A program made the translations under genes and the position numbers. Shown here piece by piece: positions 48,290 to 48,327 of a stretch of 64,000 nucleotides of DNA. The notes under the pieces are model-generated. The model saw nothing but the letters and a program-made list of their open reading frames with translations. It was not told where the DNA came from and searched no databases. How positions within the stretch are numbered: the stretch's first letter is position 1; each line of letters opens with the position of its first letter. Location of the stretch: the NCBI GenBank assembly GCA_964016885.1, contig OZ024754.1, positions 11,470,001 to 11,534,000 on the forward strand, given 5' to 3'. This stretch comes from Eledone cirrhosa. Lineage: Eukaryota.

Positions 48290-48327
48290 CCTTTTGAAAA
48301 GCAGAAGAACTGCGAAACCGGTAAAGG
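48290..48327 (+). ncRNA. Hammerhead ribozyme, U3-A8 core variant (family F)
   Basis: cctt TTGAAAA gcag-aagaa-ctgc GAAA ccgg TA aagg. Second copy at 28638-28674 (-) has a 1-nt deletion in stem I. Confidence 0.75.

Follow-up and report, generated by a model that had tools for sequence, protein, structure and literature searches.

Genes and elements in the window

The window, that is, the whole 64-kb stretch of DNA that was analysed, carries a polycystin-2-like (PKD2-like) gene on the minus strand (42447-3, identified with Pfam), which runs beyond its left end. Twelve exons of this gene were mapped using an Argonauta protein (exon 1, 42447-42214; exon 2, 21242-21129), and the best relative of a PKD2-like exon came from Argonauta, at 84% identity, which marks the DNA as that of an octopod. 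A hammerhead motif at 48290-48327 (plus strand) is found on the opposite strand, 5.8 kb ahead of the start codon of this gene, and its sister copy (28638-28674, minus strand) is found within intron 1 in the sense orientation.

Further to the right, a broken reverse transcriptase (RT) ORF (57568-56156, minus strand), whose homologues are 29-48% identical, is flanked by hammerheads with the usual C3-G8 pair, one downstream at 55211 (minus strand) and another, in inverted orientation, at the 5' end of the ORF (57638, plus strand). The ORF itself was unmatched in Pfam, and one of three homologues gave a sub-threshold match to RVT_1. Its RT DD motif, CxC-CP-C linker and C-terminal YIG are presumably those of a Penelope-like element (PLE), and together with its flanking hammerheads it is likely to be one. 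A tblastn search with 27 homologues of this PLE-like RT matched 56156-57568 only, so that no RT/endonuclease ORF was found adjoining the motif at 48290-48327 or its sister.

A type I hammerhead layout with a U3-A8 pair

The 38 nt at 48290-48327 form a complete type I minimal hammerhead layout according to sequence, descriptor scan and folding, and both the letters and their parse are exactly as an earlier sequence-only reading of this DNA had given them. Helices I, II and III surround the core and the motif ends in helix I. Stem I consists of 4 bp (CCUU/AAGG, 48290-93/48324-27) and leads into the core box UUGAAAA (U3-U4-G5-A6-A7-A8-A9, 48294-48300), which G10.1 follows directly to open a 4-bp stem II (GCAG/CUGC, 48301-04/48310-13) with a 5-nt loop, closed by G10.1-C11.1. 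The GAAA of the second core strand (G12-A13-A14-A15.1, 48314-17) runs into the palindrome ACCGGU (A15.1 to U16.1, 48317-22), seen in both sequence and folding, and A17 (48323) ends a GUA triplet, with cleavage predicted between 48323 and 48324. All of U4, G5, A6, A9, G12, A13, A14, the A15.1-U16.1 pair and H17 are in place. Positions 3 and 8 form the Watson-Crick pair U3-A8 in place of C3-G8. The motif shares a short helix I (4 bp) and a palindromic helix III (ACCGGU) with the minimal hammerheads of PLEs. The extra nucleotide between A9 and 10.1 that is usual, though not universal, in PLE hammerheads is absent from both copies.

The proposal that U3-A8 preserves the pairing of positions 3 and 8 agrees with published work, in which C3-G8 naturally covaries to U3-A8 and such natural hammerheads had already proved active in vitro (Perreault et al., 2011; PMC3088659). 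A U3.G8 wobble also occurs naturally, in a Saccoglossus row of the published alignments (PMC4209133).

The sister copy and the surrounding repeat

The sequence-only reading also held that the sister copy has the same core. The letters UUGAAAA are indeed present at 28638-28674, but the motif is only 37 nt long and is not intact, its U run being one U shorter than that of the 48290 copy, with one additional base just upstream. Either the stem I of the sister is reduced to 3 bp and a spare A stands unpaired at the cleavage site, or stem I keeps its 4 bp and nucleotide 3 is missing. The descriptor scan of the window misses it, and intact geometry is found in one of the two full copies, that at 48290. 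A homopolymer assembly error is a possible source of the one-base-short U run. The arms that carry the two motifs are identical over 141 nt save for small indels, which points to common descent, and the U3-A8 pair in the two copies therefore counts as one observation; common descent and defective geometry together led us to reject the sister as independent support for U3-A8.

Both motifs belong to a repeat of about 210 nt, present at each locus as two head-to-head arms flanked by (TA)n runs. At the first locus, arm A (48260-48400, plus strand) extends from the 5' boundary through the ribozyme to a short 3' terminus in (TA)n, and arm D (48152-48259, minus strand) is an inverted, 5'-truncated 3' part that reaches the long terminus ...CACTTTCTAA, again in (TA)n. 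At the second, arm B (28499-28705, minus strand; in PKD2-like intron 1, sense) is the longest copy, at about 207 nt, and also has the long terminus ...CACTTTCTAA, and the inverted arm C (28712-28813, plus strand), delimited by sequence and folding, begins within stem II and ends at the short terminus, making it a third, 5'-truncated copy that lacks the first box. Arms A and B share their 5' boundary to the base, 30 nt upstream of stem I, and the short terminus of arms A and C lies about 65 nt before the long terminus of arms B and D. None of the four arms starts at the cleavage site; three run through it, which makes uncut RNA the likely template. Neither locus shows directly repeated units in tandem with a full ribozyme in each, and a retrozyme reading was rejected for want of a tandem array.

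Reads and contigs from 4 of 24 sequencing runs were compared with arm B, the comparison covering its 3' part. That 3' part is present in high copy, with 2,859 contigs in run X1 and 2,192 reads in run X22, next to 7 contigs in X4 and 29 in X7, and loose ends in (TA)n at the short terminus were seen in all four runs; the reads and contigs, too, show two termini. Both loci carry an inverted 5'-truncated arm, an optional 3' tail and a (TA)n target, which are traits described for PLEs (10.1101/2021.04.23.441226).

Chance matches and other hammerheads

A strict descriptor (stem I at least 4 bp, stem II at least 4 bp and palindrome at least 4 nt), the thresholds of which were chosen after the motif had been seen, gave three matches in the window, two with C3-G8 and the U3-A8 motif at 48290-48327. 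The same descriptor gave six matches in total in 400 dinucleotide shuffles of the window, one of them with U3-A8; an earlier set of 30 shuffles had given two matches, neither with U3-A8. With looser limits the window gave six matches, all Watson-Crick at positions 3 and 8, and the 400 shuffles gave 33, of which six were Watson-Crick. It is extremely improbable that the motif is a chance arrangement within an unrelated repeat: a U3-A8 match arose in only one of 400 shuffled 64-kb windows, albeit with thresholds fitted after the fact, and although the motif has neither an Rfam match nor a linked ORF, its stem I begins 30 nt in from the 5' boundary of an element whose ends are of the PLE type, much as the motif of a C3-G8 family in the same window does. 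Rfam gave no hammerhead match for any of the window's C3-G8 motifs either.

Other matches were set aside. An Rfam match to MALAT1 scored 16.8 bits, below the cut-off of 70 (E 2.3), and was rejected, as were Rfam miRNA matches, which fell on hairpins; a long near-perfect inverted repeat at 48689-48855, 290 bp downstream of the element, appeared as a sub-threshold miRNA match. Scans with ribozyme patterns found nothing in metagenomes, viral contigs and prokaryote genomes, and a tail-pattern scan of genomes likewise gave no match. Tail patterns gave four matches in metagenomes, which agree over no more than 20-25 nt and were put down to chance.

The descriptor scan found 11 further hammerhead-like motifs in the window, and all 11 have C3-G8, five of them having come from a pass restricted to C-G or U-A pairs at positions 3 and 8. 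Six copies form a family of C3-G8 minimal hammerheads with the palindrome ACGU (45257 and about 54140 on the plus strand; 40654, about 45920, about 34705 and about 6390 on the minus strand), the five close copies of which have a common 5' boundary, some 35-40 nt ahead of the core. Its core positions are unchanged and its flanks vary: the 11 core positions show no differences in 66 comparisons against 64 of 510 elsewhere, and in the five closest copies none in 55 against 31 of 425, although two of the six copies were found by demanding an intact core. To judge from these alignments, such conservation would suggest that hammerhead cores of this genome are constrained; it does not speak for the U3-A8 family.

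Several of the C3-G8 motifs have settings of their own. One (ACC-UUU-GGU-A) lies in an element at 54900-54989 (plus strand) that is accompanied by an inverted piece at 54770-54807 and ends, like the U3-A8 family, in CACTTTCTAA; the two are possibly distant relatives. Others lie in PKD2-like introns in the sense orientation, at 41301, 40818 and 40654 in intron 1 and at 16511 in intron 2 (all minus strand); those at 41301 and 16511 belong to a single family, so that pairing within one pre-mRNA is possible in principle. Two identical motifs, at 61491 (minus strand) and 61649 (plus strand), are perfectly inverted in a 373-bp palindrome.

Predicted folding and activity

In the bare 38-mer, closing A15.1-U16.1 of helix III within the molecule costs about 5 kcal/mol (-4.7 kcal/mol with the pair open, +0.7 with it closed), and two 38-mers joined through ACCGGU reach -18.9 kcal/mol in a double-hammerhead fold, compared with a dimer minimum of -20.3 kcal/mol. 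Helix III of 48290-48327 is accordingly predicted to need two molecules, and the expectation that the ACCGGU palindrome serves a dimer is borne out by these energies and by the literature, in which the minimal hammerheads of PLEs are described as having no activity as monomers and low, slow activity as dimers (PMC4209133); a review presents their cleavage as dimers as likely (PMC6765202). When the whole 141-nt arm is considered, the double-hammerhead fold, with the flanks unpaired, lies at -21.1 kcal/mol, far above the dimer minimum of -36.0 kcal/mol, and the probability of stem I in a single-strand context is 0.02-0.08 for copy A. Arms B and C are predicted to form a hairpin of -154.6 kcal/mol that pairs across the cleavage site of the sister, and no second intact same-strand copy of the U3-A8 motif was found within the 64-kb window. 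Because a same-strand partner is missing, stem I is improbable, the double fold of the full arm is unfavourable and the sister is buried in a hairpin, cutting at 48290-48327 is unlikely, and the folding models suggest that the motif is most likely inactive in place.

That the 48290 copy itself is active and cleaves host RNA in the neighbourhood of the PKD2-like gene is very improbable. Its geometry is intact, the inverted arms place it in a hairpin loop, stem II has a probability of 0.9 and the motif lies 5.8 kb upstream of the start codon; the gene is nevertheless read from the other strand, the sister on the sense strand is defective and probably sequestered according to the folding, and the missing partner in the window, the inactivity of published PLE hammerheads as monomers and their low activity as dimers (PMC4209133) also stand against it.

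A 98-nt stretch at 28547-28644 (minus strand) resembles an intron, with CCG/GUAAAG at its start, a pyrimidine tract and GUGUAG/G at its end, and its first two letters are the GU of the GUA cleavage site. It is conceivable, though improbable, that an octopod PLE lineage passed from C3-G8 to U3-A8 independently of Schistosoma, arriving at the same UUGAAAA box by convergence, and that the GU of its GUA doubles as a 5' splice site, so that splicing would compete with dimeric self-cleavage and switch the fate of the RNA. Judged by their letters, the splice sites of the stretch appear to be look-alikes only, the GU being imposed by the ribozyme.

Origin of the U3-A8 pair

The sequence-only reading had taken U3-A8 as a double compensatory change and as strong evidence of selection for catalysis, which overstates the case, since no C3-G8 relative was found and the two copies represent one event. 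To establish a compensatory change, a C3-G8 relative of the U3-A8 family would have to be observed, and no C3-G8 state was seen among homologous copies of the repeat (two full copies compared); as applied here, the word compensatory would be borrowed from the literature by analogy.

Decay followed by amplification is a possible origin of U3-A8. A non-autonomous master with a dead ribozyme may have lost C3-G8 by decay and then been amplified, leaving a coincidental and unselected U3-A8. This is unlikely, although far from negligible. The routes would be C3U with G8A, i.e. two transitions, or C3U with deletion of G8 from CUGAAGAA, and these are the commonest types of change; loss of G8 would also account for the missing extra nucleotide (consensus CUGANGAH). 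PLE insertion in vitro does not need cleavage (PMC11167929), three of the four arms span the cleavage site and the sister is defective. Random decay, however, would not be expected to spare the remaining core, G10.1-C11.1, both stems and the palindrome, all of which are perfect, U3-A8 is a recurrent natural variant, and the cores of another family in the window are unchanged in six of six copies. The intact rest of the core favours a functional master copy, in which U3-A8 was most likely present already; there it would have kept positions 3 and 8 paired and may have been under selection.

Interpretation as a probable Penelope-like element remnant

Our preferred reading, to which we give a probability of about 0.78, is that the U3-A8 motif is the pseudo-LTR ribozyme of a PLE family, carried here on a short copy that has no ORF and for which no cutting is predicted. 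Membership of the U3-A8 loci in the PLEs is something we infer from their architecture, by analogy with described elements. Where the parent element is transcribed in tandem, two copies of the ribozyme would join by way of ACCGGU and complete each other's helix III, and the dimerised copies would cleave slowly after GUA, probably aided by the element's protein. The RT/endonuclease of the element would nick (TA)n, reverse transcription would begin at one of two internal sites, giving the long and the short terminus, and the copying of mostly uncut RNA would stop at a constant 5' end some 30 nt upstream of stem I, with an inverted truncated arm being added.

Much of this scheme has a counterpart in a PLE of Anolis, in which reverse transcription starts at either of two internal sites and the tail is the stretch that separates them, most copying is from uncut RNA and the hammerhead depends on protein (PMC11167929). 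The arms described here fit the uncut-RNA model of that work, none of the four starting at the cleavage site and three spanning it (PMC11167929). Against the fit to PLEs stand the missing base after A9 and the short stem II of the U3-A8 motif, and the tail of about 65 nt compares with the 30-40 nt described for PLEs. PLEs make up 6.83% of the Octopus vulgaris genome (PMC13282606); hammerheads are unmentioned in that repeat paper, and the motif is absent from its supplement (PMC13282606).

Comparison with known systems

Our literature search found no dedicated paper on octopus or cephalopod hammerheads; Lunse et al. (2017), which lay outside the search, may cover them. The function of PLE hammerheads is still unsettled (PMC11167929; 10.1101/2021.04.23.441226). 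Cervera and De la Pena (2014; PMC4209133) have published minimal hammerheads with U3-A8 from PLEs of Schistosoma mansoni, with about 1,300 matches; helix III is palindromic in these. The row of the S. mansoni family 4 PLE carries UUGAAAAA, i.e. the box UUGAAAA plus one further A, and a similar S. japonicum row has C3-G8 with CUGAAGAA (PMC4209133).

The motif at 48290-48327 resembles the Cercyon PLE hammerheads of S. mansoni in being of type I with U3-A8, UUGAAAA, a short helix I, G10.1-C11.1 and a palindromic helix III, and copies in both hosts are mostly solitary or on opposite strands (PMC4209133). Unlike Cercyon, it comes from an octopod host, lacks a base after A9, has a stem II of 4 rather than 6 bp and no linked ORF, and uses the 6-nt palindrome ACCGGU instead of ACGU together with A17 (PMC4209133). 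The extra nucleotide after A9 is missing in the Marsupenaeus and Saccoglossus(2) rows as well (PMC4209133), and the Marsupenaeus japonicus PLE row (Fig. S3) also shares the 7-nt box, the 4-bp stem II, the 6-nt palindrome and A17, but its core pair is C3-G8 and it occurs with a partial PLE to which it is linked (PMC4209133).

The PAc (Poseidon) hammerhead of Anolis is comparable in its pseudo-LTR, two 3' termini, AT-rich targets and insertion from uncut RNA, and differs in having C3-G8, activity that was shown to be protein-assisted and an ORF that begins at stem II (PMC11167929). Non-LTR retrozymes are likewise ORF-less, of type I and related to the pseudo-LTRs of PLEs, but they are tandem direct repeats with a ribozyme in each unit, whereas the arms here are inverted (PMC7229834; 10.64898/2026.07.22.740005). 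The present motif would extend the published U3-A8 variant of PLE hammerheads to a cephalopod, which has little significance alone. A genome with young, high-copy families of both the U3-A8 and the C3-G8 kind would offer a convenient test of selection on PLE hammerhead cores.
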